A stretch of 64,000 bases of DNA from Balanoglossus misakiensis (lineage: Eukaryota; Animalia; Hemichordata): positions 10,242,894-10,306,893 of the forward strand of contig CM082589.2 in assembly GCA_040954595.2 (NCBI GenBank). The letters are read 5' to 3'. The notes under the pieces are model-generated. The model ran no database searches. It was given only the letters and a program-made list of their open reading frames with translations, and was not told the DNA's origin. Shown piece after piece: positions 4,731 through 49,622 of the stretch. Positions within the stretch are counted from its first letter, which is position 1, and each line of letters begins with the position of its first letter. The position numbers and the translations under genes are program-made.

Positions 4731-4864
4731 TGAGATGTTGTTTGCTCCCCAGGGAGTTGAATGGAATAGTAAGGTCCAACGACCTAGGTCAAATTACCAT
4801 GGGACAACTTTAAAGCATGTTGAGATTTAATGTGCTACATAAGTTATAAATATTATATTAATAT

Positions 4865-15257: not shown

Positions 15258-15411
15258 TGTGATAGTATTGTCATGATCACGTGATTGTCACATGGTCTGT
15301 ATACGTGATTTCCTGTAACTGTTAGTTCCCGCGTGGTTGTCATTCAATAAACATCACTTCTGTGGAACTCCGTCGTTGTCGACTGTCAATAACCCCTCCC
15401 CGGACATCACA
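15258..15411 (+). repeat. 5' LTR (154 bp)
   Basis: TG...CA termini, internal AATAAA, and apparently identical to 20105-20258. Confidence 0.97.
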
Positions 15412-15415
15412 TAAA

Positions 15416-15428
15416 TGGCGACGAGGAT
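15416..15428 (+). promoter_or_regulatory. Primer binding site, tRNA-Ser(GCU)-type
   Basis: TGGCGACGAGGAT follows a 4-nt spacer after the 5' LTR and is complementary to the 3' end of metazoan tRNA-Ser(GCU). Confidence 0.85.
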
Positions 15429-15511
15429 TTAGTTGTCTAAATTAACTATCGAAGAACATACGCAAGCAACCTTTACGAGATTTGGTGACTTTTTAGCCGT
15501 GATTTGAGTGC

Positions 15512-17143: not shown

Positions 17144-19631
17144 TGGGGATATCAGACTATGTCTGGACATGAGAAAAGCAAATCAAGCCATTGTTAGGGA
17201 AAGACACCCTGTTCCCACCATGGATGAAACGCTAGAGGAAATTTCAGGGGCCAAGGTATTTTGCAAGCTTGATATGAATATGGCTTTCCATCAAATTGAG
17301 CTCGATGAAAAGAGCAGGGATATTACAACCTTTTCAGGGCCCAACTCTTTGTATCGCTACAAGCGTTTAGTTTTTGGTGTGAACATGGCGACTGAAAAGT
17401 TTCAAAATCTAATTAGCCAGGTTTTGAAGGGCTGTGAGGGTGCCCACAACATGCATGATGATATTAGAGTAGTAGCTGAAAATTATGAGCAGCTGCATGC
17501 CAGAGTTGGGAAAGTGATCAAGCGTTTTAGTGAGCATGGTTTAACGCTGAACTTTACAAAATGTAAGCTAGGAGACAGTATGATATTCATGGGTCACTTG
17601 ATGACGGCCCAGGGTATGAAACTCACTGATGAGAAGGTCAAAGCTATTGTAAAAGCTCGAACGCCAACTGACAAATCAGAATTGAGAAGTTTCTTTGGGC
17701 TGGCTCAATTTTGCTCAAAATATGTCGATAAATTTGCAACAGTGACAAGCCCACTGTGGGATTTGACTCGCAAAGATGCAAAGTGGAAATGGCTTCCCAA
17801 GCATGAGAAAGTATTCAATCTCATCAAACATAAATTGACCACAAGTCCATTCATGGCTTATTTCAAGCAGGGTGCTAAAACTCGAGTCACTTCTGATGCA
17901 TCGCCCGTTGGTGTTGGAGCAATCCTTGAACAAATGCAAAGTAATGGTTCATATCAACCAGTGTACTATGTTAGCAGAAAGCTTACACATGTTGAGTCGA
18001 GGTACTCTCAGTTTGAGCGAGAGGCGCTTGGAGTTAAATGGGCATGTGAGAAACTTCAGCAGTTTCTGCTAGGCAGTCATTTTGAGGTCAGAACTGACCA
18101 TAAGCCTTTATTGAAAGTATTCAGCCCTAACTCCAGGCCCCCTTCAGCTAGAATTGAGAGGTGGCTGTTATATATGCAACAATTTGATTATCATATCACC
18201 CATATCAAGGGAAAGAATAATTATGCGGACATGTTGAGTAGATTGCCCGTGGACGAACCATCTGACAACTATTGTAGAGAGACTGAAGATTTTGCATGTA
18301 GTGTTGTTTTAGAGGCTATGCCATCTGCTATCACCCCACGTGATATTGAGAGAGAATCTGCAAAAGACCAGAGCTTGCAATTGGTTGAAAAGTGTATTAC
18401 CTCTGCAAATTGGTCAAAATTGAAGTCTTCACCCTATTGGCATGTGAAAGACGAATTATGGTTGTATGGCAGATTGATCATGCGTGGTAACAGATTGGTT
18501 GTTCCTCAAGTTTTGCAAAGAAAAATCTTGAAAATTGCACACCAGGGTCATCAGGGAATTGTGAGGACAAAGGCTCGTTTACGTGACAGAGTTTGGTGGC
18601 CAGGAATGGACAGGGATGTGGAAAAACTGATACGATCCTGTCATCCATGTCAATTGGTCAGTGCCAGGCCAAACCCAGAGCCATTATTACCCACACAGTT
18701 ACCTGAAGGACCATGGTTCGATTTAGCAGTTGATCTTTTGGATGTATGTGATGGTGAGAAATTACTAGTGGTAACTGATTTATACTCTAGATGGCCTGAA
18801 GTAGTTTTGTTAAAGAAAACAGATGCTGCCCATGTCATAAAAGCCATGGAAGCTATGTTTCTTACACATGGGTTGCCTTACTGTGTCAAATCAGACAATG
18901 GTCCACCTTTTACCTCAGCCGAGTTTGAAGGTTTCCTTGATTACTTAGGTATTGATCATGAATATTCCATTCCATACTGGCCTCAGAGCAATGGAAGTGT
19001 TGAGAGGCTGAATGAAATAATTTTGAAGTCTGTACGAATTGCTAAATTGCAAAAGAAAAGTTGGTACAAAGATTTGACACATTTTCTATTTGAATATAGA
19101 AATACACCCCATACTGTGACAGGCATATCTCCTGCTATGGCTCTGATGGGAAGAGAGTTTAGGGACAAAATTCCTAGACTGAGAATTCCATCCCAAACAA
19201 TCAATGAGTCTGATTGGCAAATCAAAATGAGAGAAAGAAACAACAGAATGAAAATGAAACAAAAGTTCTATGCCGACAACAGGAGACATGCCACTTCCTC
19301 AGATATCAGGGAAGGTGATACTGTTTTGCTCCAGCAAGCATTTAGGCAAAACAAACTCACTCCCAATTTCGAGACAGAACCATACAAAGTCATCCAGAAA
19401 GATGGAGGTGCGTTATTATTGGAAAACTCCAAAGGTGTAAAAAGAAGGTCCACTGGACATGTAAAGAAATATGTTGAGGAATATCCAGAATTTTCCTTCC
19501 AGGGCACTGAATGGAACTCCAAACATTTGACATATGAACAACCTCAAAGGGTTCAAAATGGTGTTCCATCCTGTAACCCCCATATCCATGATTTGTCTAC
19601 ACATAACAACCTGGATAACTTGCCAGTATAA
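17034..19631 (+). CDS. pol: Gypsy Pol: reverse transcriptase, RNase H, integrase
   Basis: RLCLDMR, KLDMNMAFHQ, NMHDDI (RT); SDASPVG, EREAL, TDHKPL (RNase H); HQGH..CHPC, VDLL, SDNGPPF, NGSVER (integrase). Confidence 0.95.
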   Translation: MLKLLKKLNELQKLGVIEKVSGPTSWVNPLVTVQKPDGDIRLCLDMRKANQAIVRERHPVPTMDETLEEISGAKVFCKLDMNMAFHQIELDEKSRDITTFSGPNSLYRYKRLVFGVNMATEKFQNLISQVLKGCEGAHNMHDDIRVVAENYEQLHARVGKVIKRFSEHGLTLNFTKCKLGDSMIFMGHLMTAQGMKLTDEKVKAIVKARTPTDKSELRSFFGLAQFCSKYVDKFATVTSPLWDLTRKDAKWKWLPKHEKVFNLIKHKLTTSPFMAYFKQGAKTRVTSDASPVGVGAILEQMQSNGSYQPVYYVSRKLTHVESRYSQFEREALGVKWACEKLQQFLLGSHFEVRTDHKPLLKVFSPNSRPPSARIERWLLYMQQFDYHITHIKGKNNYADMLSRLPVDEPSDNYCRETEDFACSVVLEAMPSAITPRDIERESAKDQSLQLVEKCITSANWSKLKSSPYWHVKDELWLYGRLIMRGNRLVVPQVLQRKILKIAHQGHQGIVRTKARLRDRVWWPGMDRDVEKLIRSCHPCQLVSARPNPEPLLPTQLPEGPWFDLAVDLLDVCDGEKLLVVTDLYSRWPEVVLLKKTDAAHVIKAMEAMFLTHGLPYCVKSDNGPPFTSAEFEGFLDYLGIDHEYSIPYWPQSNGSVERLNEIILKSVRIAKLQKKSWYKDLTHFLFEYRNTPHTVTGISPAMALMGREFRDKIPRLRIPSQTINESDWQIKMRERNNRMKMKQKFYADNRRHATSSDIREGDTVLLQQAFRQNKLTPNFETEPYKVIQKDGGALLLENSKGVKRRSTGHVKKYVEEYPEFSFQGTEWNSKHLTYEQPQRVQNGVPSCNPHIHDLSTHNNLDNLPV

Positions 19632-20091
19632 CCCGTCTGTTCTAGTCAGAAATCAACTGGACCAGCATGTCCTAGTCCTGTTTCACCTACTGGTACAGCA
19701 TCGTTGGAAACGATTGTAAATGTTCCTCCAACAATGCCAGTGACAAATTCACCTAAGACAAATGTAAACCCCAATAGTACTGATGTGAGACGCTCAACAA
19801 GAATAAAATCTAAACCTCCTTGGCACAAAGACTATTGCATGCCAGAAGGATAGATTATATTGACATAAGACTGTCCACAAACATTATGGAATGAGTTTCT
19901 GTAGAGCAAATTTTCTCTTGGAGATTTGTATTTTCCTAGTTATGAAGTTCTCAAGTTCTTGTTAAGGTTAAGGTTCTGTTTGTTTTCGTTTGTTAGAACA
20001 TGATCATTCACAAAGCATTACAATTTGACAGTGTTGGCAAATTTCATACTTTCCAAAGCGAGTTGTAAACTTAAAGTACAAGTTTTCTTCT

Positions 20092-20104
20092 AAAGTTGAG
20101 GAGA
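20092..20104 (+). promoter_or_regulatory. Polypurine tract
   Basis: AAAGTTGAGGAGA lies immediately before the 3' LTR. Confidence 0.75.
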
Positions 20105-20258
20105 TGTGATAGTATTGTCATGATCACGTGATTGTCACATGGTCTGTATACGTGATTTCCTGTAACTGTTAGTTCCCGCGTGGTTGTCATTCAATAAACA
20201 TCACTTCTGTGGAACTCCGTCGTTGTCGACTGTCAATAACCCCTCCCCGGACATCACA
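20105..20258 (+). repeat. 3' LTR (154 bp)
   Basis: Matches the 5' LTR and is followed by the TSD ATCAT. Confidence 0.97.
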
Positions 20259-25819: not shown

Positions 25820-27792
25820 TAAGCAATACGCCAACCTTTAAAATATTACTTTAGAAAGTTTGTATTCATACTTTCTTCAAGTTGTCATAACGCTACCCCG
25901 AAATGTGTTTAAGTATTGCCTTTGTATTAATGGGCTAGATTCATGGCGTTATATGTCATAAATTAAAAAGCCAACCCTTATTGATTTTGATAATATTTAT
26001 GTCGGAGAATCCACAATGAAAAATATGTATTTCAATTTCATAACTCAAAATGATTTTCAAATCCATGACCTTATTTTCAACTCCAGTGATCGTACATCCT
26101 GAACCTTGTGCCAGTAAATGATTGGCCATTACAGGGTTAATGGGCACTCTCCCGTTCTCTTCCTCCGCAGTTTCATTCATGTTCTTGTTTGACGGAAATG
26201 GGTGTGACCAGACGCTTGAATGTTTTCATGTGGGTGTCGTTGTTCATCGGGATCGGTCTCCTGGTGTGTCTGTACAGGTACGCAAGGAGAAACTGCCCAC
26301 AAGAAGCTGCGAGTGAAACTATTTAAGGTAGTATGTGCCTCGCGGTCCGAGATTCAGACAAATGATAGTCCTCAAAACTTTTTCAAGTCTTTGATTTACT
26401 AAAGTGTATGGTGAGTCTCTTTGAAAACAACAAAAACATTACTCACCATATTGTTATTTTTTTGAAAGTTTAAAATGAAGTTGACAATGTACCAAACAGA
26501 TTCTATTTATTTCTTCATGACCATGTTCACCCCAAGGTCATATGGACCTGCAAGTATATGCCAGAGCCAGAGTCGACATTACCGAAGCCAGAGTTCAAAG
26601 CTTGCAGGTCACCCCTTGCCAGCTCATGTCTAGCTAAACTGCCATGGATGCCAAGAGATATAGGACTACAGTAACCTGTAGATGGTTTCAGTATGTTTGA
26701 AGAAAGTGGTGGCGCACGTTTGGCTACATTTGAAATGGCTATGGTACCAGTGGTTGAATTTGCAAAGGTGACCTTTGACCTGGTATCATTAAAGATATTA
26801 AAGAACGATTGAACATTCCTTGTTGTCGTAAAATGACATCTGTAATAACTTATATTTTATCTGTTCATCTTGAAGTACTATATATTTAAACGCCAATTTT
26901 CCATTGCCAATCAAGTTTTTACAAATAAATTGTAATATGCATGTTGATTTTACAAAAACTCCTTACTTCCAAGTGAATTCTGTTACACATCACGTAAATA
27001 TTTTCCCCACGAATTCTTCAGTTGCTGACTCGGAAATTTCATATATTGGGCAGAAATTGGATACATTACCGAGCCATTAAAATTACAGTTTTCTATTTTA
27101 ATTGATCTTCCATAACTTCAAGTACTTTGATTTGACATAAATTAAAAACATCATGGTGAATAAATAAAAAATCTTTGATTATCTAATTGTGCATGTTTAC
27201 ATGGTTTTATTTTAGTATGCTGGGTACTTAATGTCTAATTGCTCGCTGATTTTATACTGTTCAAGATGACAATCTAATTTTAGTTTTCAGCTGATAATGG
27301 AAATCACTGATTAAAAAAATTGAATTTTGTCATGAATAAACTTGTTGTTCATGGCAGTTGCTGTATTTTGTTTCATGTGTATTCAATTTTTGCAAGAATA
27401 CCATTGAGCACAGTTTGATTTGATTAAACACGTTTATCGGAAAATTTTGTCATTTGAAATATCTGTTTTTGCGCCCTCTACCATTTGACCAAATGATTCT
27501 CTTATTTTGGTGGCCTTTGTCTGTGTATATGAGAATACTATAGTACTCTCGCATCGATGATAGTAGAAGTTGAAAACGTCTCTTGCCACGTGGCCTAGAA
27601 GAAAGGTGATCTTTAGAGTAAAATAAAACAAACTATCCAGATAGGAAGCTAGAAAAGAAGTTGAATCGTTGAAATTTTATTTATTTTTATATTGTTAATA
27701 TCGTTGGTGATGTTGACTGGCCGACAATCTTTGTCACACCAGTATTTGCAGGTAGATTAAAACATTGCCTATTCCAGCAATAATCACAACAG
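25820..27792. repeat. ~1.97-kb dispersed repeat of unknown class, copy 1
   Basis: Highly similar, in direct orientation, to 42607-44578. It begins abruptly inside the 170-bp repeat. No long ORF. Confidence 0.9.
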
Positions 27793-29322: not shown

Positions 29323-29641
29323 GTTTTATCGTTTTGTTGTGCATTTGTTTGTATACTATCATAAATTGTTGCCATATAGTGGAGACCATGGTTTTGATAG
29401 GTAGAGATTCTGCAAATTGTGAAGACGGTGCTGGGTCTGTAGGCTGGTACTGTTACTGTATGTGCGCTTGTGGTTTCCTGCTATATAATATGGGCCGTGT
29501 TGGTTTGCGTCGTGCGTTTGGCTGTGTTGACTTGTGCTGAATGCCCTGTACTGCTAGTGGTTGTCAAACTGGGGGTTGTAAATCGCGATACAGCAAAGCA
29601 TATATGCAGAAAGAATATCTAAGATAGGGAGAAAATTTGGG

Positions 29642-31403
29642 TTGGAAGGGACTGCTTTAAAAGATTATGTTAGAGAGGAACAAATTAGACAGAGGGATCT
29701 TAGGGCTACTGAGAGAGAGGAGCAGAGAGAAGATAATAGGCGGCGCGAGGAACATGAGAGAGAGATACTGAAAATGCAAATTCACTTACAAGAATTAAAA
29801 TTGAAAGGGGAAAATACAGAACAGCAGGTTACTGAAAATAATTTGGCCAAAGCGCGTGCTCCGAGACTACAGGGTTTTCGTGAGGATGTTGATGATATGG
29901 ATGCGTACCTTCAACGTTTTCAGCGCTACGCCACTGCTCAGAAGTGGGAAAAAGATGTCTGGGGGTGAATCTCAGTGCATATTGTTACAAGGTAAGGATG
30001 TATCCACATACAACCAAATGCCTGCAGCGTCTGCAAATAATTATGATGAATTGAAACCAGAGTTATTGAGGGCTTACCAGTTAAGTGAGGAGAGTTTTCA
30101 TGACAAGTTCCGTTCGTGTATGCCACATTATGATGAAAGTGCTCAAAAGTTTATGGACCGTATTGGTGACTATTTGGGCAGATGGGTAGAACTGGCTGGT
30201 ACTCCAAAGACGTACAATGGGCTTACAGATCTGTTACTTCGAGAGCAGTTTATTGGAGTATGTTCCAGAGACATGGCAATGTTCATTAGAGAGCGACGGC
30301 CAGAGAATGTCCAAGAGATGGTATCTACTGCCTCAAAATACTTAGATGCCCGAGGGTGGTGGAAACTGCCAAGTAATGCCAAGAATAATCCAAGGAGCCA
30401 GCCGACAGCAAATACCAAGCCTTCTGTATATCCAAATCAAGTAAATAAGTTTAATAACAAAACCAATGGTTCCCATGTTTTTAAAGGTACGTGCTTCGTA
30501 TGTGGTAAAGGTGGTCATATGGCCAAAGATTGTAGAAGTAAGCCAAAGATGCATAAGACGGCGGTATTGTTAACTGAAGAAGATAGAAACTATCCACCTA
30601 AACAAGAATGTACACATTGGGGCAACCGTCAACAGCCCAGGGGACTAGACACTGGTTATGCATGTATGGTGGTAGCAATGGAAATAGATAAAACAGATGC
30701 AACACTGAATAAGGAGTTCGTGTTACCATGTGGTCATAAGCTCCCAGTGATGAGTGCTGCTTGTAGTGCCCATGGAGTGAAGAAGATGCCGGTAATGAAG
30801 GGATTGCTCGATGGTAAGCTGGTTAGCGTTTTGCGTGATAGTGGGTGTAGTAGCGTGGTAGTTCGAAGAAGTCTGGTGTCAAGTAATCAGCTGACTGGTG
30901 AGTACAGGACGTGTGTTCTGATAGATGGGACTATTAGAAGAGTACCTGTAGCCTCTATAAAAGTTGATACCCCTTACTTTGTTGGTGATGTTACTGCACT
31001 GTGCATGATGAACCATGTGTATGATTTAATACTGGGCAACATTGATGGTGTATCTGACCCTTCGAATCCTGATACTACATGGCAGGAACCATTGCCGACA
31101 TGTAGACTGTGTACAACTGTTGGACAGGTACCAGGTTTAGCAAATGCTGTGGAGACCAGAGCCCAGAAGATAGCCAACCAAAAACCAATCAGAGAGCTTA
31201 AAGTACCTAAAGCTGTTGGTGAAGTGGTGATGCCAGGGAAGCTTCAACAAAGACTCCACTCTTGACAAACTACGTGAGAAGGCAATTTTGGGTGACGAGA
31301 AAGTGACTAGGAATGGAGGTAGGTTGAAGTTCATCATGAAAGATGGGATCCTGTACAGAGAGTTCAATTCGCCAATGGTCCAATTTGGTGAAAAGCTGTT
31401 ACA
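29642..31403 (+). pseudogene. gag: Gmr1-like gag-protease and start of integrase (frameshifted)
   Basis: DDMDAYLQRFQRYA, LLREQF, CFVCGKGGHMAKDC, LRDSGCS, ETRAQ and DGILYR. Frameshifts at ~29962 and ~31250. Confidence 0.88.
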
Positions 31404-31487
31404 CACTGCGGGAAATACTAGAGCTATGTTGGGCAGTATTCCGCGAAGCGCGAGCTCCCATGTTCACCATAGCAACGCATTGCCAAG

Positions 31488-32138
31488 ATGGCGGCGCCCG
31501 TGTTGATCGATGCCGAGAAAGTTATAAAACGCAAATTGCGAGAGGCAAAATCTGTGCTTAAACGTAAAAAATGCGTGTCGGACAATCTGTATATACACCC
31601 ACTCTTTGATGAACTTGAGGATGTGACAACAAGGGCCATATTTCGAAACGACAAGCTGTCAAAGGACAAGATTCGTTGGCGTGACGTCGCCGTATTTCCC
31701 ATGTTTCAGCGTGATATGACCTACTGGCAGAAGACCTTCTACGCTCGGCTGTCAACATCCCCGTCGTTAAGGTCACCATGGCAAAGCAGCTTTACACGAC
31801 AAATGCCGAGGGAAGTATTTGATGTTTTTCATCAGTTTGCTACTCGGACCGGTTTTGGTATCGACGAGAAGACCTCCAGGGCTATCATAACCTTGACCTT
31901 CACAAGTTCCTTGAAGCTATTGTATGTGATACGGAAAGGTTATTGCTACGAGGGCGCTATCGGTCAGCATACAGAGAATATCCTAGAGAAGAAAGTCCGT
32001 GGAAAGAGGGTAGCTGTTATATTCACACCTGAGAAGCCCTGTGTTGTGAAATATTTTATAAACAGGGAGACTGTTGCTGTTAGATTCAGCTTTGGTGCCT
32101 GGAACAAACATGGAATTCCATTACATCCAGAGAACTGA
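31488..32138 (+). CDS. Unknown 216-aa basic protein, second gene of the CACT transposon
   Basis: Intact single-exon ORF in a good start context (CAAGATGGCG), 84 bp from the left end, with AATAAA at ~32267. No recognisable domain. Confidence 0.75.
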   Translation: MAAPVLIDAEKVIKRKLREAKSVLKRKKCVSDNLYIHPLFDELEDVTTRAIFRNDKLSKDKIRWRDVAVFPMFQRDMTYWQKTFYARLSTSPSLRSPWQSSFTRQMPREVFDVFHQFATRTGFGIDEKTSRAIITLTFTSSLKLLYVIRKGYCYEGAIGQHTENILEKKVRGKRVAVIFTPEKPCVVKYFINRETVAVRFSFGAWNKHGIPLHPEN

Positions 32139-32990
32139 ACCCTATTGATTTTTCACACTGATTCAACCCATCTGAGGAACATTTTTTTCCTGATCTGTGG
32201 CACATGTTGTTCAGTGTAGATGTATCAGTCTGTCAAGACAGTCCTCTCACAATTGACATATATTCAAATAAAAAAAGGAAAATTAGAAGACTCAAAAATT
32301 CATCACTTGTCTTTATTTATCTACATTCAATACAAATGAACAGATAATGTTTACAAAATTTCCTAAACTGTAAAATTCTTTTTTTCCATCATTATTGTAA
32401 CATAGATTTTTCATTAGTTTCAGAAAAAAATGTATGTTACCTACAATCAACATTGATAAGTCAATCAAAACTGCTCATCTAACAGTTAACCAGGATTTCT
32501 GGTCTAAATTTAATTAATATTTACAATTAATTCCATGACAAAATTTATAAATATCAAGAATTTGATGAGACTTAATTCTTTATTTTTTCACAAATTCATT
32601 AAAATTTCGTGCAGGTGCAGAATAAACAACTCCTCAAGAAAAATGTAAAACTTTTCTATCAAGCTTATGTATGTCATACATTTTAATTTTGCAAAGCACT
32701 GCAATCACTATACGATTAAGGGTTTATTCACAATACTTAATAGTGGTAAGATAAGTTTCAATTTCCCTGTCCCCATACATGCACACATATACAAAATCCC
32801 ATAAGAAACATATCATCTCCAGTTCAAAAAGTGTGAATTCATGTGATTTGTGATCTCCATTTTTATTAAATGCAGCTCTCAACTACAGATGAGTCTTTAT
32901 AATTCTGTAATGTAATTAATACTATAGTTATCCTTTAATTCTAAAGTAGCACACAGTGACACAATCCACTGTTTCAAATTCAATCATTGT

Positions 32991-35900
32991 TCACAGCATA
33001 AGTTTCTTGAGTTTATTTGATATTTTACCAGTGACAGCTGCTTTTTTTATGTCATCCATAATTGGGTCAACACATATTTCACAGGCAGTCATTGTTTCAT
33101 TTTTTTAAATTGCCACACATACAGTAGCCTGCATTCTCATAATATCGACTGGGAATGTATTTTTCTTTTTCTTTAAGCTCAAATTGACCTACATTTGCAT
33201 TTCTATAGTTGTCAGCTTTTGGACTTTTGTTCCTCAGCCAAAAAAGCATCACATATTCGTGTCGAAATATGAGGGCCCACCTATTTTGAGGTGTAGAATT
33301 TTCACTGAATTCTAGCAGGCGTAGATGCTTTGCCTCTCTGCCTTCCATTGTGTTTAGGCCTAATCCCAGACTGAATTGCTTATAGATACTAGTGGTGTGT
33401 TTTGGGACTACATAACCAATGTGCCACACAGTATTATTGACATTCAGAAACAGGGAATGTAGATTAAAGTACCACCGACACTTATGCCTAAGTACAAGCA
33501 AATCTCCCTCATTTATGTTGAATCGTGAGAATAACAAAGTGATATCTCTAAGCAAGATACCAGTATATGTGTAGAGAGCTAATTGAGCCCGACGCTTTGG
33601 TCTGTCTGTATCGCTTCTCAATGCTAATACCAATCCTATGAAATGCCAAGCAAGTTTGCGAGACTCCTCACCAGTGAAGCGATAAACCACATTAATGTTG
33701 GCATTTGACTTGACACTATTTTCATTGAAGTATTTTACAATCTTATTATACAACTTTCCAGCTTTTACTTGATATTTTAGGGCAGACAGGAATTTGTACA
33801 GATATGACTCGTTAGGTAGATTCTCAATTTTAACTCCATTTTCACGACCCTTTTCCGAAGTGTGGGCAACTGCGTCAATCAGTAATCGTTGGAAGTAGTA
33901 TTGCCATGCATTGTTCTTTAAATGCAATGGCTCAGCCTTGGCACAATCAATAAATCTACCCAACGGTGGTACAAATTCCTGTCTTGACCTCAGACTGGCT
34001 ATAAATTGTGTGATTTTGGGTCGCACTGTTTTGGGCTTTCCAGTTTTAATTTTCTTAGTTGACTTCAACTTTTCAACAGCTTCTGCATCTTTAATTCTTT
34101 TCTGATATTTCCATTCATCCCACTTCTGACCTGGGCCAATTTCTGCTCCAATACAATCAATATCATTTTTGGAACGTTAGCAAATGAGCTGAAATACTTT
34201 GCTGCATTGCTTAGTTCTCCAGACACACTGGCCAATCCCTTCTGATCAAAGGGTAAAAGTGACACCTGAAAAGTTACATCAAGACTGCCAACTTTATATT
34301 TACGTTTCTCAATACACTCAAGGTCTTTTGACAATGCAATTGCAAATTCAATCATTATGGGGTCATCCTCTTTTATGTTTGCCCCTAATAGGAGAAAATT
34401 GTGGTCTGGGCTAGCAACACGGTGGGTCACATTCAAGAAACTAACTAGCCATGCAGTGGCCTGTCCATGTTTGCCAAACGGAGCCCCGTCAGCACCTATA
34501 CTGATTTGAAATGAGCCCTCCTGTTTACCGAACCAGTTAAGAATATCAGGCTGTGTTTCCCCCATATTTAAATATAAACTGGCAATCTTAATAAGCAACT
34601 CCTCAGGGTTTCTTTTTAAGCCGACTTGTTTGCCTTCAGATGATATAATTGGCTCAAGATTTCCAATGTCAAGGTTACTTACATACTGTACAACTTTTGT
34701 GTATGGGAGCAGTCTTGGTATTCTACAGCCAGAATGAATTTCTAATGCTTTCCTAGGATGTTTCAAGTTGGAGAACATCTGAAGTTCACTCTGCCTCAGA
34801 CAGTTATATTTTCGTTTGGATAGCACTCCGCCCTCATACATAGTTCTGACACTCCTCACCAAATTGTTCTCACTTTTCTCAAATTTACTGATGTATTTAT
34901 CAAATACTGATGGCATTACTTTTTTACTGATTTGGGGAGAGGTTCTGAAGAATGTTTTCATTTGGTCAGGAGTGGCAGAATTAACAAGAGTATACCACAA
35001 ACCATCAAGTGCTGCTTTTGGTGGATGTAGTACATTCGGTTTATTTATACCTTTGGCTGGGCTTACATCTGTAGTTGCTACATGAATATTTATGGCTGCT
35101 GATAAGGTTTCACACCTACGTTCATACTGTTGACGTCGCGACAGCTTCAAAGATTCACTATTATCTGCACATACTTCAGTGTTCTTGTGGACCCATTTAG
35201 AGCGTTTCACATTAACAACATCAACAGGAATCTGAAAGATTAAGTGTGTGATAAATATATACTAATTAGAATATAATCATTATATATAAAATAAAATCTT
35301 CTTACAAGTTAATCATTAATTTAAATGTCCTTGATAAGAAATACACACGTGTAGCCTGTATTTTTCTGACAACTTCTGCAATAAAAATCCTAAAAAATAT
35401 ACATAGTTTGTTGGAAAACCTAGATGTTTTGCATCAAAGCTGAACCCATTTTGTTATCATTGTTTACACAGGATCATGTGACATGAAGTTCAAAAAGCGA
35501 ATTTGGGCTAAAATTTGAAGAGGATTTATACAAATCTGAGATTTTTAAAATTATGACTAAGTCTATTTATCTGATCTAGCTTACCTTTCTCTTATTATTC
35601 TTTGTAGCTAAGATCTCACAAATCTTACTGTTCTTCTTCTCTAGTCTAGCTAGCTGGGTTGAGGATTTTTTACTAGTCTCCTAGCTGCACTCAACTTATT
35701 CAACTTATCCTGAATTATGCTTTCTTCCTCATCTCTCTTTCTCTTTCTCTGTCTACACCACTCTCCTAAGTTAAACCTGTGTTTAGTCTGTCCTCTCTTT
35801 GTTCTAACTACCAATAGGTTGTTGGCCACGCTCCCAGACAAAGATCTAGTCTTCAATTTCTCCTGATATAGTTGTTGTAAACACTTCTTTTCAGCTACCT

Positions 35901-36027
35901 GTCTCGCTATCTTTTGGTCCTTTGCCCACTGGCCTATGTTGAAGTAACTTTTCCCTTTTCTATTCGGCATAACAATAGACAAACTTTTAAGAAGTGCGCT
36001 ACTCCTGTTGAATAGTTTGCCCCACAT
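32991..36027 (-). pseudogene. RAG1/Transib/Chapaev-like DDE transposase (~900 aa when repaired; 2 coding exons; 3 frameshifts)
   Basis: Exons 36027-35585 and 35231-32991 (phase-0 GT-AG intron). Motifs IGADGAPFG (D1), PFDQK..SGEL (D2), EPLHLK, RFTGEE and GLGLNTMEGREAKH (E) parallel the RAG1 core motifs SCDGMG, GYDEK..VEGL, DALHC, MNGN and IGAWASEGNESGNK. Frameshifts at ~35680, ~34172 and ~33100; the repaired C-terminus has CxC...CxxC. Confidence 0.8.
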
Positions 36028-36879
36028 GGCTCTAAATCTATACCTGAAAAGGGTGAACAAGAGAAATATCTTTACAATAATTATCTATCCGAGGGAAGCA
36101 AAAACAAAACACCTGCTCATTATACTTCCTCCAGAAATTGAGGTCAAAGGTGACATAGAAAGAATGTGGGTAACCTTACCATAACAATCTCGCCCATTCA
36201 TTTTTTTCTTATTTCGTTTTCACCCTCGAATTTCCAGCGAATTATATCAAGAATATATTTTAGCACAAACTATTGGTTTCTGATTTTTCAGTTACGGTCT
36301 TATTTTCTGTCAATTCTATGAACAATATCACCATGTCGCCGAAAATTCGAAGCGCCGCCATTACAATCAATGTAACCCGTGCTGCTGCCAAGGAACACAC
36401 AGGGTCGTATATTTTCGCTTGGTATGATTTCGTCATATTGCTTGTAGCAGCATTTTAAACATGGAATCCTATGTTTACGTATAAAAGACTAAATTCGTAT
36501 GGTTTTCAAATTGAAAAAAACAATTCTGTGAAGCTGAATCGTTGTAATTTTTAGTGTTTGTTTATGGTTGCTTAGGACGGCTTCTGCTATAGCAACGGCC
36601 AGGGACTGTCAGCGGGTGATCAAAATGTTCAAGTTATTTGGCTGATACACATAAATAACACAGCAGAATCGCAACTTTATTTCATATTGTCTCTGACATC
36701 TTGCTAATTTTACTAAACAAAACTTGGAATAAAGCAATATTACTCACCGAATTATGCTGTGCATCGACAGCTGTGTTCGATCGCGAACGCCATTACTGTG
36801 TCTAATTAAATATTCATGAGCTTCATAGGCTGCCACGGAAATACTGCCCATAGGTGGCGTCGTTCAAGCTGTAGTGACA

Positions 36880-38888
36880 GGTGGTGGTTCCCAGAGTGTA
36901 TCGTAACCAGGTGATGAGACTAGCCCATGAATCAGTGCTGGGTGGTCACCACGGAACTCACAAGACCACAGACAAGATCCTCAGCAACTTCGTTTGGCCT
37001 GGGCTAACATCAGATGTTTCCCGTTACTGTCAGTCCTGTGATTCATGTCAACGGACACAACCAAAGGGACGGGTGACCAAGGTACCACTTGGAAGTATGC
37101 CACTAATAGATATCCCTTTCCTACGTATTGCAGTAGACCTGGTTGGCCCTATTCATCCATGCACTGAACGCAAGAATAGGTACATACTTACTGTTGTTGA
37201 TTATGCAACACGCTATCCGGAGGCTGTTGCATTGACTAACATTGATACCAAGACTGTTGCAGAGGCGCTCCTGGACATCTACTCAAGAGTGGGGTGTCCA
37301 CGTGAAATTCTGACAGATCAAGGAACTCAATTTACATCAGATGTGATGCGTGAGGTCAGCCGGCTTTTGTCTATAAAGCAGATGACTACCACCCCATACC
37401 ACCCAGCATTCAATGGTCTAGTGGAACGGTTCAATGGTACATTGAAACTCATGCTCAGGAAGATGTGTGAGGAACGTCCAACATATTGGGATCGTTATCT
37501 GAATGCTTTACTATTTGCCTACAGAGAAACGCCTCAATCGAGCACAGGATTCTCTCCGTTTGAGTTACTTTATGGGAGGAGTGTGCGTGGTCCAATGGCT
37601 ATCTTGAAAGAACTATGGACTGGAGAGATCAGTGAACCAGAAACCAAAACGACTTATCAATACATCCTTGATCTTCAAAAGAAATTAAAGAAGGCATGCG
37701 ATTTAGCAAGACAAGAACTGAAGATATCACAAGGCAAATACAAGTCCTACTACAATAGAAAGGCCAAATGGAGGAAGTTCAACAAAGGTGACGAGGTGTT
37801 ATTGCTACTACCTACTGACCATAATAAACTACTTATGCACTGGAAGGGTCCTTTTCCAGTGGTGGAGAAAGCGAGCAATATGGATTACAAGATTGACTTT
37901 GGTCATAGGGTGAAAACATTCCATGCCAACCTGTTGAAGAGGTACTATCGAAGAACTGATCAGCTAGATGAAGTATCAGCTGGACTTCTTGAGATTGTGT
38001 GTGTATCTGTGATAGATGAGCAGAGTTATGAATCTTCAGAAGTACAAGAGAACACAGGGGTTAAAGTAAACGATGACTTACTGCGGGTTCCTGCATTCAA
38101 GCAGAAAGAATTTGCTGCAGATGTGAATGTATGTGACAACTTGTCAGACATACAGAAGCAAGTGGTGAGGAGGTTGCTGATCAATTACAAAGATATGTTA
38201 ACTGATATTCGTGGTAACACCAACCTGGGTTTCCATGACATCAAGTTGATGGATCCAACACCAGTATGCAGTAGGCCATACCCCATCCCTCATGCACTCC
38301 GTGAAGCAGTGAAAGATGAAGTCAAAACGATGATTAAGATGGGAGTAGCTGAACCTTCAGAGAGTCCATATGCTGTTCCACTGGTAATGGTGAAGAAATC
38401 TGATGGGTCCAATCGTTGTTGTGTTGACATGAGAAAGCTCAATCGCATAACAGTGTTTGATGCAGAGCCTACACCAGACCTGAGTGAGCTTTTTGCTTTT
38501 TGCTAAGTTATCCAAGGATCACTATTTCACTAAAGTAGATCTCAGCAAAGAATATTGGCAAGTCCCGTTGACTGATAATTCTAAACAATTGACGGCATTT
38601 ATCACGCATGATGGGCTATACCAATTTATCAAAATGCCTTTCGGACTTGTAAATAGTGCTGCGACTTTTAGCAGAATTATGAGAAGATTGTTAAGAGATA
38701 TGAAGAACGTAGACAACTATATCGATCACATACTGATCCACACTGCATCATGGGAAGAACATATCAAGACAATTACAGATTTGATGAGCAGACTACGAAA
38801 GGCAAAGTTAACAGCGAGACCAACTAAGTGTTATGTGGGTTATGAGCAGATCGATTTCCTGGGTCATGTGGTTGGTCATGGTGAACTA
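36880..38888 (+). pseudogene. pol: Gmr1-like pol: integrase followed by reverse transcriptase (frameshifted, truncated)
   Basis: AHE..GGH..CDSC, AVDLVGP, TDQGTQF, NGLVER and WKGPF (integrase/GPF), then RCCVDMRKLN, KVDLSKEYWQ, MPFGL and YIDH (RT, YxDD mutated). A 7-bp duplication causes the frameshift at ~38490. Confidence 0.92.
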
Positions 38889-38904
38889 GTCCTGTTTCAA
38901 AATG

Positions 38905-39245
38905 ACCTACATTACAGGTCCTATGCACACGTATTACATGTTCTGATTGGTTTATCCACTTCTCTAAGGTCCACTTGCGGCTCGCTGATTGGAGGGACCT
39001 TATGTGTTAGGTCTTATTACTATGTATTATTCACCAGACCTTGTAGGTTAGGTCTTATTACAATGCATTATTCACTTTACAGCTCCCTGATTGGTTAATG
39101 TGTAGGTCTGGTCCTCCAGTGTTCACTGCCTCATTATGCAGGACCTTGTAGGTTAGGTCTTATTAATATGTATTTATTCACCATACAGCTCCCTGATTGG
39201 TTAACGTGTCAGTCTGGTCCCCCCAGTGTTCACTGCCTCATTGTG
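38905..39245. repeat. Short tandem array, ~105-bp degenerate unit, at the Gmr1 truncation point
   Basis: GACCTTGTAGGTTAGGTCTTATTA...TACAGCTCCCTGATTGGTTAA...GTGTTCACTGCCTCATT at ~39038 and ~39142, with partial copies upstream. Confidence 0.7.
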
Positions 39246-42606: not shown

Positions 42607-44578
42607 TAATCAATACGCCAACCTTTAAAATATTACTTTAGAAAGTTTGTATTCATACTTTCTTCAAGTTGTCATAACGCTAACCCGAAATGTGTTTTAG
42701 TATTGCCTTTGTATTAATGGGCTAGATTCATGGCGTTATATGTCATAAATTAAAAAGACAACCCTTATTGTTTTTGATAATATTTATGTCGGAGAATCCA
42801 CAATGAAAAATATGTATTTTCAATTTCATAACTCAAAATAATTTTCAAATCCATGACCTTATTTTCAACTCCAGTGATCGTACATCCTGAACCTTGTTCC
42901 AGTAAATGATTGGTCATTACAGGGTTAATGGGCACTCTCCCGTTCTCTTCCTCCGCAGTTTCATTCATGTTCTTGTTTGACGGAAATGGGTGTGACCAGA
43001 CGATTGAATGTTTTCATGTGGGTTGAGTTGTTCATCGGGAACGGCCTCCTGGTGTGTCTGTACAGGTACGCAAGGAGAAACTGCCCACAAGAAGCTGCGA
43101 GTGAAACTATTTAAGGTAGTATGTGCCTCGCGGTCCGAGATTCTGACAAATGATAGTCCTCAAAACTTTTTCAAGTCATTGATTTACTAAAGTGTGTGGT
43201 GAGTCTCTTTGAAAACAACAACAATATTACTCATCATATTGTAATTTTTTGAAACTATAAAATGAAGTTGACAATGCACCAAACAGATTCTATTTATTTC
43301 TTCATGACCATGTTCACCCCAAGGTCATATGGACCTGCAAGTATATGCCAGAGCCAGAGTCGACATTACCGAAGCCAGAGTTTAAAGCTTACAGGTCACC
43401 CCTTGCCAGCTCATGACTAGCTAAACTGCCATGGATGCCAAGAGATATATGACTACGGTAACCTGTAGATGGTTTCAGTATGTTTGAAGAAAGTGGTGGC
43501 GCACTTTTGGCTACATTTGAAATGGCTATGGTACCAGTGGTTGAATTTGCAAAGGTGACCTTTGACCTGGCATCTTTAAAGATATTAAAGAACGATTTAC
43601 CATTCCTTGTTGTCGTAAAATGACATCTGTAATAACTTATATTTTATCTGTTCATCTTGAAGTACTATATATTTAAACGCCAATTTTCCATTGCCAATCA
43701 AGTTTTTACAAATAAATTGTAATATGCATGTTGATTTTACAAAAACTCCTTACTTCCAAGTGAATTCTGTTACACATCACGTAACTATTTTCCCCACGAA
43801 TTCTTCAGTTGCTAACTCGGAAATTTCATATATTGGGCAGAAATTGGATACATTACCCAGCCATTAAAATTACAGTTTTCTATTTTAATTGATCGTCCAT
43901 AACTTCAAGTACTTTGACTTGACATACATTAAAAACATCATGGTGAATAAATAAAAATTATTTGATTATCTAATTGTGCATGTTTACATGGTTTTATTTT
44001 AGTATGCTGGGTACTTAATGTCTAATGGCTCGCTGATTTTATACTGTTCAAGATGACAATCTAATTTTAGTTTTCAGCTGATAATTGAAATCAATGATTC
44101 AAAAAAAATGAATTTTGACATGAATAAACTTCTTGTTCATGGCAGTTGCTGTGTTTTGTTTCATTTGTATTCAATTTTTGCAAGCATACCATTGAGCACA
44201 GTTTGATTTGATTAAACACGTTTATCGGAAAATTTTGTCATTTGAAATATCTGTTTTTGCGCCCTCTACCATTTGACCAAATGATTCTCTTATTTTGGTG
44301 GCCTTTGTCTGTGTATATGAGAATACTATAGTACTCTCGCATCGATCATAGTAGAAGTTGATAACGTCTCTTGCCACGTGGCCTGGAAGAAAGGCGATCT
44401 TTAGAGTAAAAAAAACAAACTATCCAGATAGGAAGCTAGAAAAGAAGTTGAATCGTTGAAATTTTATTTATTTTATATTGTTAATATCGTTGGTGATGTT
44501 GACTGGCCGACAATCTTTGTCACACGAGTCTTTGCAGGCAGATTAAAACATTGCCTATTCCAGCAATAATCACAACAG
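42607..44578. repeat. ~1.97-kb dispersed repeat of unknown class, copy 2
   Basis: Direct-orientation match to 25820-27792, with a further shared ~25-bp block at ~44888-44911 and ~27982-28006. Confidence 0.9.
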
Positions 44579-45562: not shown

Positions 45563-48500
45563 TTTTTTTTTGGTGATTTTCACCGATGTTTTTTTTTTCA
45601 AAAATCGACGAACCAATGATTTTTTTCAAAATCGACGAAATTTTGAGATTATGCAAAGTCGAAAATTTTTCATTTTTTGATGATTTTCACCCATGATTTT
45701 TTTCAAAAATCTACGAAATTTTGAGATTTTGCAAACTCGAAAATTTGTCATTTTTTTATGATTTTCACCCATGATTTTTTTTTAAAAATCGACGAACCCA
45801 TAATTTTTTTCAAAATCGACGAAATTTTGAGATTTTGCAGTCTAAAATGTTTCATTTTTTGATGATTTTCACCCATGTTTTTTTTTCAAAAATCGACGAA
45901 CCCATGTTTTTTTTCAAAAGTCGACGAAATTTTGAGATTTTGCAGTCTTAAATTTGTCATTTTTTGATGGTTTTCACCCATGTTTTTTTAAAAATTCGAC
46001 GAACCCGTGATTTTTTTTCAAAATCGACGAAATTTTGAGATTTTGCAAAATCAAAAATTTGTCATTTTTTGATGATTTTCACCCATGTTTTTTTTTTCAG
46101 AAATCGACGAACGCATGTTTTTTTTCAAAAATCGACGAAATTTTGAGATTTTGCAGTCGAAAATTTGTCATTTTTTGATGGTTTTCACCCATGTTTTTTT
46201 AAAAAATCGACGAACCCGTGATTTTTTTCAAAATCGACGAAATTTTGAGATTTTGCAAAATCAAAAATTTGTCATTTTTTTGATGATTTTCACCCATGAT
46301 TTTTTTTCAAAAATCGACGAAATTTTGAGATTTGCAGTCGAAAATTTGTCATTTTTTGATGATTTTCACCCATGATTTTTTCAAAAATCGACGAACCCAT
46401 ATTTTTTTTCAAAATCGACGAAATTTTGAGATTTTGCAAAGTCGAAAATTTGTCATTTTTTGATGATTTTCACCCATGTTTTTTTTTTCAAAAATCGACG
46501 ATATTTTGAGATTTCGCAAAGTTGAAAATTTGACATTTGTTGATGATTTTCATGAGCTATAGCCTATGATTTTTTTTTCAAAAATCGACGAAATTTTGAG
46601 ATTTTGCAGTCGAAAATTTGTCATTTTGTTGATTTTCACCCATGTTTTTTTTAAACAATCGACGAACCCATGATTTTTTTTCAAAATCGACGAACTTTTG
46701 AGATTTTGCAAAATCGAAAATTTGTCATTTTTTGATGATTTTCACCCATGATTTTTTTTCAAAAATCGACGAACCCATAATTTTTTTCAAAATCGACGAA
46801 ATTTTGAGATTTTGCAAAGTCGAAAATTTTTCATTTTTTGATGATTTTCACCCATGTTTTTTTAAAAAATCAACGAACCCATGATTTTTTTTCAAAATCG
46901 ACGAAATTTTGAAATTTTGCAAAATCAAAAATTTGTCGTTTTTTTGAGGATTTTCACCCATGATTTTTTTTTCAAAAATCGACGAAATTTTGAGATTTTG
47001 CAGTCGAAAATTTGTCATTTTGTTGATTTTCACCCATGTTTTTTTTAAACAATCGACGAACCCATGATTTTTTTTCAAAATCGACGAACTTTTGAGATTT
47101 TGCAAAATCGAAAATTTGTCATTTTTTGATGATTTTCACCCATGATTTTTTTTCAAAAATCGACGAACCCATAATTTTTTTCAAAATCGACGAAATTTTG
47201 AGATTTTGCAAAGTCGAAAATTTTTCATTTTTTGATGATTTTCACCCATGTTTTTTTAAAAAATCAACGAACCCATGATTTTTTTTCAAAATCGACGAAA
47301 TTTTGAAATTTTGCAAAATCAAAAATTTGTCGTTTTTTTGAGGATTTTCACCCATGATTTTTTTTTCAAAAATCGACGAAATTTTGAGATTTTGCAGTCG
47401 AAAATTTGTAAATTTTTGATGATTTTCACCCATGTTTTTTTAAAAAATCAACGAACCCATGCTTTTTTTCAAAAGTCGACGAAATTTTAAGATTTTGCAG
47501 TCTTAAATTTGTCATTTTTTGATGGTTTTCACTCATGTTTTTTTAAAAAATCGACGAACCCGTGATTTTTTTTCAAAATCGACGAAATTTTGAGATTTTG
47601 CAAAATCAAAAATTTGTCATTTTTTTGATGATTTTCACCCATGATTTTTTTTCAAAATCGACGAAATTTTGAAATTTTGCAAAATCAAAAATTTGTCGTT
47701 TTTTTGAGGATTTTCACCCATGATTTTTTTTTCAAAAATCGACGAAATTTTGAGATTTTGCAGTCGAAAATTTGTAAATTTTTGATGATTTTCACCCATG
47801 TTTTTTTAAAAAATCAACGAACCCATGCTTTTTTTCAAAAGTCGACGAAATTTTAAGATTTTGCAGTCTTAAATTTGTCATTTTTTGATGGTTTTCACTC
47901 ATGTTTTTTTAAAAAATCGACGAACCCGTGATTTTTTTTCAAAATCGACGAAATTTTGAGATTTTGCAAAATCAAAAATTTGTCATTTTTTTGATGATTT
48001 TCACCCATGATTTTTTTTCGAAAATCGACGAAATTTTGAGATTTTGCAGTCGAAAATTTGTCATTTTTTGAAGATTTTCACCCATGATTTTTTTCAAAAA
48101 TCGACGAACCCATAATTTTTTTCAAAATCGACGAAATTTTGACATTTTGCAAAGTCGAAAATTTGTCATTTTTTGATGATTTTCACCCATGTTTTTTTTC
48201 AAAAATCGACGAACCCATGGTTTTTTTTCAAAAATCGACGATATTTTGAGATTTCGCAAAGTTGAAAATTTGACATTTGTTGATGATTTTCATGAGCTAC
48301 AGCCAATGATTTTTTTTTCAAAAATCGACGAAATTTTGAGATTTTGCAGTCGAAAATTTGTCATTTTGTTGATTTTCACCCATGTTTTTTTTAAACAATC
48401 GACGAACCCATGATTTTTTTTCAAAATCGGCGAACTTTTGAGATTTGGAAAATCGAAAATTTGTCATTTTTTGATGATTTTCACCCATGATTTTTTTACA

Positions 48501-49620
48501 AAAATCGACGAACCCATGATTTTTTTCAAAATCGACGAAATTTTGAGGTTTTGCAAAGTCGAAAATTTTTCATTTTTTGATGATTTTCACCCATGTTTTT
48601 TTTTAAAAATCAACGAACCCATGATTTTTTTTCCAAATCGACGAAATTTTGAGATTTTGCAAAGTCGAAAATTCACCCATGTTTTTTTAAAAAATCAACG
48701 AACCCATGATTTTTTTCAAAATCGATGAAATTTTGAGATTTTGCAAAGTCGAAAATTCACCCATGTTTTTTTTCAAAAATCGACGAACCCATAATTTTTT
48801 TCAAAATCGACGAAATTTTGAGATTTTGCAAAATCAAAAATTTGTCATTTTTTGATGATTTTCACCATGATTTTTTTCAAAAATCGACGAAATTTTGAGA
48901 TTTCGCAAAGTTGAAAATTTGACATTTGTTGATGATTTTCATGAGCTATAGCCCATGATTTTTTTTTCAAAATCGACGAACCCATGTTTTTTTTTCAAAA
49001 ATCGACGATATTTTGAGATTTCGCAAAGTTGAAAATTTGACATTTGTTGATGATTTTCATGAGCTATAGCCCATGATTTTTTATTTCAAAAATCGACGAA
49101 ATTTTGAGATTTGCAAAGTCGAACATTGGTCATTTTGATGATTTTCACCCATTTTTTTTTTTCAAAAATCGACGAACCCATAATTTTTTTTCAAAATCGA
49201 CGAAATTTTGAGATTTTGCAAAGTCGAAAATTTGTCATTTTTTGATGATTTTCATCCATGTTTTTTTTCACAATTCAACGAACCCATGATTGTTTTCAAA
49301 ATCGACGAAATTTTGAGATTTTGCAAGAACCCATGATTTTTTTCAAATTCGACGAAATTTTGAGATTTTGCAAAGTCGAAAATTTGTCATTTTTTGATGA
49401 TTTTCACCCATGATTTTTTGCAAAAATCGACGAACCCATGATTTTTTTCCAAAATCGACGAAATTTTGAGATTTTGCAAAGTCGAAAATTTGTCATTTTT
49501 TGATGATTTTCATCCATGTTTTTTTTTTCAAAATTCAACGAACCCATGATTTTTTTCAAAATCGACGAAATTTTGAGATTTTGCAAGAACCCATGATTTT
49601 TTTCAAAATCGACGAAATAT
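45563..49620 (-). repeat. 78-bp A/T-tract satellite, inverted block (~4 kb)
   Basis: Reverse complement of the monomer in the next block, with frequent 28-bp sub-units. Confidence 0.96.
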
Positions 49621-49622
49621 TG

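Follow-up and report, generated by a model that had tools for sequence, protein, structure and literature searches.

The stretch of DNA analysed here (the window: 64,000 nucleotides of the hemichordate Balanoglossus misakiensis, assembly GCA_040954595.2, contig CM082589.2, positions 10,242,894 to 10,306,893 of the forward strand) contains an insertion of 5,473 bp at 31404..36876, flanked by ACA on both sides. Two genes lie tail to tail within it. The transposase gene, predicted to be spliced, lies on the minus strand, encodes about 875 amino acids (aa) with three frameshifts, and faces a 216-aa gene on the plus strand, hereafter the partner. We identify the insertion with high confidence as a two-gene cut-and-paste transposon of a CACTA/Mirage/Chapaev/Transib (CMCT) lineage. 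That the partner serves as a cofactor of transposition is a claim of moderate confidence, suggested by the linkage, selection and charge described below. The features of the element are as follows.

31401..31403, plus strand: left copy of the target site duplication (TSD), ACA, from flank comparison
31404..31440, plus strand: partner-side end CACTGCGGG, family consensus CACGCYGGG, with TGGGCAGTATT at 31430-31440
31488..32138, plus strand: partner gene, 216 aa, a single intact open reading frame (ORF), isoelectric point (pI) 10, from 81 homologs, alignment and model
32139..32990, no strand: AT-rich spacer separating the two stop codons, AATAAA/ATTAAA on both strands, putative shared 3' end region
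32991..35231, minus strand: transposase main exon with C-terminal CxC..CxxC, frameshifts near 34173 and 33099
34490-34488, 34247-34245, 33924-33922 and 33336-33334, minus strand: transposase catalytic residues D, D, the His of PLH, and E
35232..35584, minus strand: predicted transposase intron, 353 nt, GT-AG, phase 0
35585..35970, minus strand: predicted first coding exon with a basic start, two F-N-(I/L)-G-(Q/E)-W motifs and a coiled coil, frameshift near 35666
36044..36179, minus strand: possible 5' untranslated intron, judged from splice-site patterns only
36840..36876, minus strand: transposase-side end CACTACAGC, with TGGGCAGTATT at 36850-36840
36877..36879, plus strand: right copy of the TSD, ACA, from flank comparison

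The boundaries read TTACA/CACTGCGGG at 31404 and GCTGTAGTG/ACAGG at 36876. The terminal inverted repeat is weak, with four perfect bases and 22/40 identical positions, and TGGGCAGTATT is found in subterminal position (+27 to +37) on both ends. Both the terminal inverted repeats and the TSD of a DDE cut-and-paste transposon are present. Across the insertion the host flanks read in register as a single frame (..FGEKLL / QVVVPR..), and in the right-hand one Pfam Integrase_H2C2 (E 2e-20) begins at residue 4, directly after the right ACA. The original prediction, made from the sequence of the window, had described an exact 5,473-bp insertion with an ACA duplication whose removal restores a host integrase frame, carrying a spliced minus-strand DDE transposase with three frameshifts and, tail to tail with it, an intact plus-strand ORF of 216 aa; all of this holds, the splicing as a prediction. 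It had also given the ends as CACT...AGTG, of which CAC stands and CACT, as the end of the family, gives way to the consensus CACGCYGGG.

Assembled contigs from two runs of one sample (X1 and X2) span both junctions; as the sample is possibly the source of the window itself, they do not count as independent support. No empty site was found in these contigs at the window locus, and the window's first 45 kb contain no second copy of the element. The same sample holds diverged relatives of the element, seen as contigs about 80% alike to window positions 31429-31542, 32089-32136, 33717-33802 and 34181-34277, one of which carries a CACTACGGG end in exact register with the end in the window. Their depth is 6- to 15-fold below that of the window locus. 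The host flanks match the element in its high depth; multiplication of the entire block is thus possible.

The transposase gene and its family

On the minus strand the motifs GADG, PFDQK, EPLHLK, FTGE and MEGRE follow one another in the order first proposed (GADG/DQK/PLHL/FTG/MEGRE). The coding start is probably the ATG at 35970 (MPNRKGKSYFNIGQW), judging by its likeness to the homolog starts MPPRKGQKNRFPVNRF and MPKRTRSRERFPIGEW, and relatives share a short first coding exon with a GT donor at a comparable place. The frame breaks were confirmed near 35666, 34173 and 33099. At the first break the X1 contigs have one inserted base, and at the second only those of X2 do; at the third the run contigs are the same as the window. 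The window copy is probably inactive because of these frameshifts, the third of which disrupts the conserved C-terminal CxC..CxxC, and the breaks may be homopolymer errors common to reads and assembly.

A search with a 359-aa piece of the transposase returned 76 homologs longer than the query, the best from Ptychodera flava (75% identity) and the others at 32-44%, with Acropora, Porites, Actinia, Desmophyllum, Lineus and Owenia among the named hosts. The hosts of the related proteins are corals, anemones, a hemichordate, a nemertean and an annelid; no relative of the element was found in the viral contigs or phage records searched. Profile search gave 247 matches at E up to 10, with no Pfam domain in the best 120 of the 247, and all names among the matches listed are 'uncharacterized', 'hypothetical' or 'unnamed'. 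Thirty transposase homologs gave no meaningful Pfam match, and Transposase_21 (EnSpm/CACTA) was not found in them at E up to 1. Searches of Pfam, NCBIfam and PDB sequences were blank for transposase and partner alike, and the profile search of PDB sequences did not match RAG1/Transib.

The catalytic columns, in the numbering of the homolog P0001, are nearly invariant: D181 in 75/76, D262 in 75/75, H370 in 76/76 and E566 in 76/76, the conserved D, D and E of an RNase H-fold transposase. The C(2)C zinc motif in the interval from the second D to the E is found in 0/156 homologs (of 160, four without the anchor motif), where the consensus reads YFSPFANV. At H(3-4)H before the catalytic E, the first His is kept in 60/140 and the second in 135/140 (of 160), and the window has Tyr. 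The placement of these two motifs is presumed from their spacing to RAG1 motifs. The GRP motif of the nonamer-binding domain is absent from all 147 N-termini (0/147). So is the Chapa motif CRxC (0/147), many of these N-termini coming from N-terminally incomplete gene calls; the Chapa motif was likewise not found in the first exon of the window or in the first exons of the eight complete relatives listed. At the C-terminus, CxC..CxxC is present in 137/160 homologs.

Predicted fold of the transposase

The fold was assessed on a model of P0001, which is 75% identical to the 359-aa piece (predicted local distance difference test, pLDDT, 91). The best Foldseek matches of this model are RAG1 structures (E 6e-12, template modelling score, TM, 0.53/0.65), and no CACTA- or Chapaev-type structure is among the PDB matches listed. 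The original prediction had pointed to RAG1, HzTransib and ProtoRAG as the structures for comparison, and all three matched: the VIA structure comparison gave Z 22.5 with RAG1 (457 aligned, root-mean-square deviation 3.5), 20.0 with HzTransib (6pqx) and 19.9 with BbRAG1L, followed by P element (11.5) and Hermes (5.7). The transposase is therefore predicted to have the RAG1/Transib fold. Among the predicted models of the ESM Atlas, RAG1 (TM 0.63) is tied by a cnidarian Transposase_21/CACTA cluster (0.62), DUF1258/Mirage (0.61), Plavaka (0.59) and DUF1280/Chapaev (0.58), DUF1258 being assigned to Mirage and DUF1280 to Chapaev in PMC3985635. The Atlas clusters of the family itself, at TM 0.82-0.85, stand far above all outside models. 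Because the listed PDB matches include no CACTA- or Chapaev-type structure, and CACTA, Mirage, Plavaka and Chapaev models score about equally, the match confirms the fold of the model and not kinship with RAG1/Transib. The earlier reading of the element as CMC-Transib is thus upheld as to the type of fold, and its suggestion of a particular closeness to RAG1/Transib or ProtoRAG is not.

These data bear on the possibility that the transposase and RAG1L/Transib are true sisters, with RAG2L replaced or never acquired in the present lineage and the convergent layout shared with ProtoRAG by descent. Of the solved structures, RAG1 comes ahead of HzTransib; by features, RAG1_RNase_H clusters of the Atlas lie at 0.92-0.95 with no CACTA-family row among the matches listed; and the cysteine-rich tail recalls CTT1, the tail found in RAG1L and in Transib of subgroup I (PMC9435367). 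The structural identity to RAG1, however, is only 8-13%, far below the mean of 26% between RAG1L and Transib (PMC9435367), and to the tie among the CACTA, Mirage, Plavaka and RAG1 models are added a TSD of 3 rather than 5 bp, the lack of GRP and of ZnC2, and a tail motif that reads CxC..CxxC and not CCGHC. We consider such descent quite improbable.

The partner gene

The partner ORF begins 84 bp inside the element end. Whereas a word-seeded search gave zero homologs, a full HMMER search recovered 81, at 20-39% identity and mostly 140-250 aa long. The family is marked by a C-terminal motif, G-x-W-N-x-x-G-x-P-(Q)-H. In the model (pLDDT 91), three N-terminal helices forming a helical hairpin are followed by a small alpha/beta domain. 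The protein is basic: pI exceeds 9 in 52/68 members, K/R columns are conserved, and no acidic column rises above about 70%. No kelch or PHD match and no recurrent Pfam family was found in 58 members. Structure searches gave nothing clear in the PDB with Foldseek (best E 0.024), only the N-terminal helices in the wide VIA search (Z up to 7.6), no clear fold for the alpha/beta part, searched within the whole-protein model (Z up to 5.1), and at best TM 0.27 in a viral structure library. The partner is not RAG2-like, as had been proposed, and these searches matched it to no known family or fold. Purifying selection at the level of the coding sequence shows in its dN/dS, which is 0.20-0.35 in five pairs of moderate divergence (three of them with locus L036); for the transposase, the dN/dS row L016/L024 was left out owing to misalignment.

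Linkage and co-divergence of the two genes

Loci were located with the transposase alone, as the best 80 of 206 metagenome stretches plus one from genome contigs (L081). Of these 81 loci, 72 extend to the transposase C-terminus and 34 hold the partner. The partner is present in 30/34 loci that extend 1.5 kb or more downstream, in 22/24 with 2 kb and in 15/16 with 3 kb, always convergent with the transposase and 245-3,976 bp away. Protein pairs found independently on contigs of equal size, P0003/P0088 (36,827) and P0304/P0091 (545,840), are suggestive only. No fusion of the two proteins occurs among 307 proteins, and their profile-profile likeness has a probability of only 0.6%.

Co-divergence was examined in 17 families at 85% identity, the window included, with transposase identities of 30-68%. 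Pairwise identities of transposase and partner are correlated (Spearman 0.47, permutation p 0.0001). The IQ-TREE trees of the two genes have 8/14 splits in common, and the maximum among shuffles was 6, with 0/10,000 reaching 8. This co-divergence shows long residence and usefulness of the partner, not physical contact. The original prediction had suggested that the lineage acquired an accessory gene; the partner is an old, co-diverging component of the lineage and not the capture of a single element.

The same data weigh on the view that the 216-aa gene stems from the recent capture of a host fragment and serves the element in no way. A Tubulanus polymorphus protein of 613 aa (P0141), which bears a partner-family domain fused to its C-terminal end, through possible domestication or a gene-model fusion, would fit such a capture. 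The fixed position and orientation in 17 families, the congruent trees and a dN/dS well below 1 speak against it, and we regard the capture, largely refuted by the co-divergence, as very improbable.

A further observation concerns the region upstream of the transposase start, where 6/9 families in which the left end is present and the partner known carry a fragment of their own partner gene (98-340 bp, 88-96% identical). The fragments lie at L002:569-746, L007:1014-1168, L043:3128-3234, L063:282-472, L072:806-903 and L081:8777-9115. Each family has a different stretch, inverted within the element, and four of the fragments end at most 75 bp from the predicted ATG. L003, L075, L040 and the window have no such fragment upstream of the transposase. 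The fragments may have arisen from template switching between paired ends, or may act in control at the RNA level.

The latter would suit a partner that is a regulator outside the transpososome, that is, an anti-silencing or RNA-binding protein that tunes or protects expression of the same element. The basic character of the partner agrees with this role, its look-alikes by ESM Atlas features are Argonaute N/L1/PAZ clusters (0.92-0.93), and the upstream fragments could put both RNAs under shared control. However, the Atlas rates the Argonaute hint as weak (recognition 1361 versus 2300; 140/256 shared features), the Argonaute-system chains appear as weak Foldseek rows (E 0.12-0.14, TM 0.16), and the 58 partners have no recurrent Pfam family. 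The fragments, moreover, differ between families, have mismatches spread over codon positions and are missing from the window. We consider a regulator, the chief alternative to a cofactor, possible but unlikely.

Ends and target sites of relatives

Partner-side ends start with CAC in 16/16 cases (one per family, window included), with the consensus CACGCYGGG. The 3-bp duplication was likewise sought in other copies. Ten relatives have both ends and flanks; L044, whose outer left end is truncated, and L063, with a one-base flank, were dropped from the count. Four of the ten have a 3-bp duplication (GAT, TAG, ATT and ATA), one has a 2-bp match and none has a match longer than 3 bp, the chance of a 3-bp flank match being about 0.018 per locus. 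In L081 (CBDAUV010000034.1), the clearest case, an 8.5-kb element interrupts the satellite unit AAACTAATACCACC as AAACTAATA/element/ATACCACC, and empty units AAACTAATACCACC repeat on both sides, so that the duplication can be read against the empty site. In L003, L072, L075 and L081 the two ends are present, the TSD matches and neither main ORF is interrupted.

The contig of L081, with satellites of 134/160/294-bp units and a complete family element, is labelled as an Anaerolineae metagenome-assembled genome and was the single match among prokaryote genomes. A bacterial origin was rejected, since the flanks are satellite arrays without an ORF of 120 aa; it is probably eukaryotic host DNA binned into that genome.

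Host retroelement and the rest of the window

The insertion splits a broken retroelement.

29582..39098, plus strand: host, a broken Gypsy-type retroelement with SCAN, zf-CCHC, protease and integrase, then reverse transcriptase (RT)-like frames

With the integrase before the RT-like frames, the order would match that of Gmr1-like Gypsy elements. A direct repeat of 1,975 bp, 96.8% identical, brackets the host-retroelement region at window positions 25820-27792 and 42607-44578. A second Gypsy-type element lies at 15258-20258 (gag 15503-17143, pol 17004-19631) and was recently inserted, as its two 154-bp direct repeats are 100% identical. Satellite arrays occupy the start of the window (192-bp unit, 366-4733) and its end (78-bp AT-rich unit, 45612-64000), the latter changing strand near 49600.

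Discussion

The element satisfies the description of the CMCT clade (Kojima 2025) in its 5'-CA..TG-3' termini, a TSD within 2-5 bp and a RAG1/Transib/CACTA-like core, and departs from it in the C(2)C motif. Compared with ProtoRAG/RAGL, it has a convergent gene pair between terminal inverted repeats, CAC ends, a RAG1-type core fold, a cysteine-rich C-terminal tail and marine invertebrate hosts. Unlike ProtoRAG/RAGL, its partner is a helical hairpin plus alpha/beta protein and not RAG2L (six-bladed kelch plus PHD), its TSD is 3 bp instead of their 5 bp (PMC7204232), and its transposase lacks ZnC2, the GRP motif and N-terminal zinc fingers. With Transib (HzTransib and the Nozomi/Hayabusa group) it shares the core fold and the CAC ends; Transib has a single gene, the C(2)C motif, a shorter protein that lacks the N-terminal coiled-coil exon and usually a 5-bp TSD, although Transib TSD length varies and some Transibs make 3-bp duplications (bioRxiv 10.64898/2026.08.26.747230).

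Chapaev and Chapaev3 resemble the element in their 5'-CAC..GTG-3' ends and 3-4 bp TSD (PMC4079192) and in the LH motif, and the outside Atlas cluster nearest by features (0.97) bears the Chapaev domain DUF1280 in 16% of its members. The element differs from them in the missing Chapa motif (PMC4411706), the missing C(2)C, the partly kept H(4)H and the constant second gene, and from Chapaev3 in that its target duplication is not TWA (PMC4079192), which is found in 0/5 retained TSDs (ACA, GAT, TAG, ATT and ATA). EnSpm/CACTA, with TnpD and TnpA, is alike in the 3-bp TSD, the CAC start, the accessory protein and the fold of the cnidarian Transposase_21 cluster. It is unlike in Transposase_21 itself, which the family does not match, in C(2)C, and in TnpA, which is co-oriented or alternatively spliced (PMC13547354) whereas the partner here is convergent on the opposite strand. 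Further literature compared comprises 10.1101/2021.09.26.461848, PMC4455052 and PMC8245031. Since it lacks the defining features of ProtoRAG, Chapaev/Chapaev3 and EnSpm as well as one CMCT motif, we file the element as CMCT-like, outside the named families. We regard it as a CMCT lineage in its own right, found in marine invertebrates and set apart by motifs and features; kinship with ProtoRAG is not shown.

The lineage had been called poorly described, and we found no description of it in the literature searched, which leaves out Repbase Reports and most subscription journals. It might be that Repbase or Dfam already holds it as EnSpm, Chapaev or unclassified, in which case only the description of the partner is new. 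CAC ends with a 3-bp TSD do fit the rules by which EnSpm and Chapaev are filed (PMC4079192, PMC12730594), the DUF1280 cluster points the same way, and the hosts include well-studied corals. All CMCT lineages of Repbase, however, are said to have both C(2)C and H(3-4)H in common (Kojima 2025), and the absence of C(2)C, CRxC and TWA, the lack of a meaningful Pfam match and the uninformative names of the listed matches also argue against a catalogued family. An existing entry seems to us unlikely, if conceivable.

The reading that we favour, and hold to be probable, is that of a two-gene cut-and-paste transposon of a distinct CMCT lineage whose partner is a nucleic-acid-binding cofactor of transposition. 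Several observations weigh against it. Six of the ten relatives with both ends (L002, L007, L009, L043, L047 and L069) show no matching TSD; because single flanks are shared (L069/L072 and L043/L047), the sequences suggest chimeric short-read joins. The fold was shown on the model of a homolog and not on the window's own protein, and the ends in the window are degenerate. The linkage, expected to be constant, is convergent in every locus with a partner but fails in four: L014, L033, L039 and L052, each with at least 1.5 kb downstream, have none even at a relaxed threshold. L033 is 5'-truncated, L039 is frameshifted, and L081, a close relative of L014, has its partner 4 kb off, past where L014 ends. 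The near-identical pair L057/L059 has a partner dN/dS of 1.5 (one synonymous and five non-synonymous changes). The partner tree contains two well-supported conflicts, L028+L032 (98) and L016+L063+L081 (96). Finally, any useful gene carried by an element would be expected to show linkage and co-divergence.

Nick-and-hairpin excision and strand transfer are the established chemistry of RAG and Transib. By analogy of fold, a transposase dimer would bind the CACGCYGGG ends, the element would be cut out through a nick followed by a hairpin on the flank, and its ends would be joined to target strands 3 bp apart. The basic partner of 200-250 aa, encoded on the opposite strand, would join the transpososome or help build it, a role analogous to that of RAG2 for RAG1L and to that modelled for TnpA with TnpD in En/Spm. 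The insertion domain is a candidate docking site because its ZnC2 ligands are lost and the RAG2-binding region lies in ZnB (PMC9435367); the partner may stabilise this domain in place of the lost zinc site. Carried further, the lineage would be an unrecognised superfamily-level branch of the RAG1 fold that evolved the RAG design independently, dropping the zinc site and coming to depend on a convergent cofactor of new fold that docks where RAG2 docks, a speculative proposal that we think rather unlikely.

It has long been asked how the RAG machine, with its two proteins, arose from a transposase of Transib type that had one. RAG2L is the sole partner described for the RAG1 fold in animals in the literature searched. 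To ask why enzymes of this kind acquire partners, one can now compare it with another widespread lineage, in which core fold and tail-to-tail layout are the same and the co-diverging partner is unrelated, and the core fold can lose a zinc motif reported to be common to all CMC/Transib/RAG1 transposases. The intact relatives L003, L072, L075 and L081 make the question of the partner directly testable. The lineage may be a second case of the enzyme-plus-helper design that lies behind antibody gene assembly.

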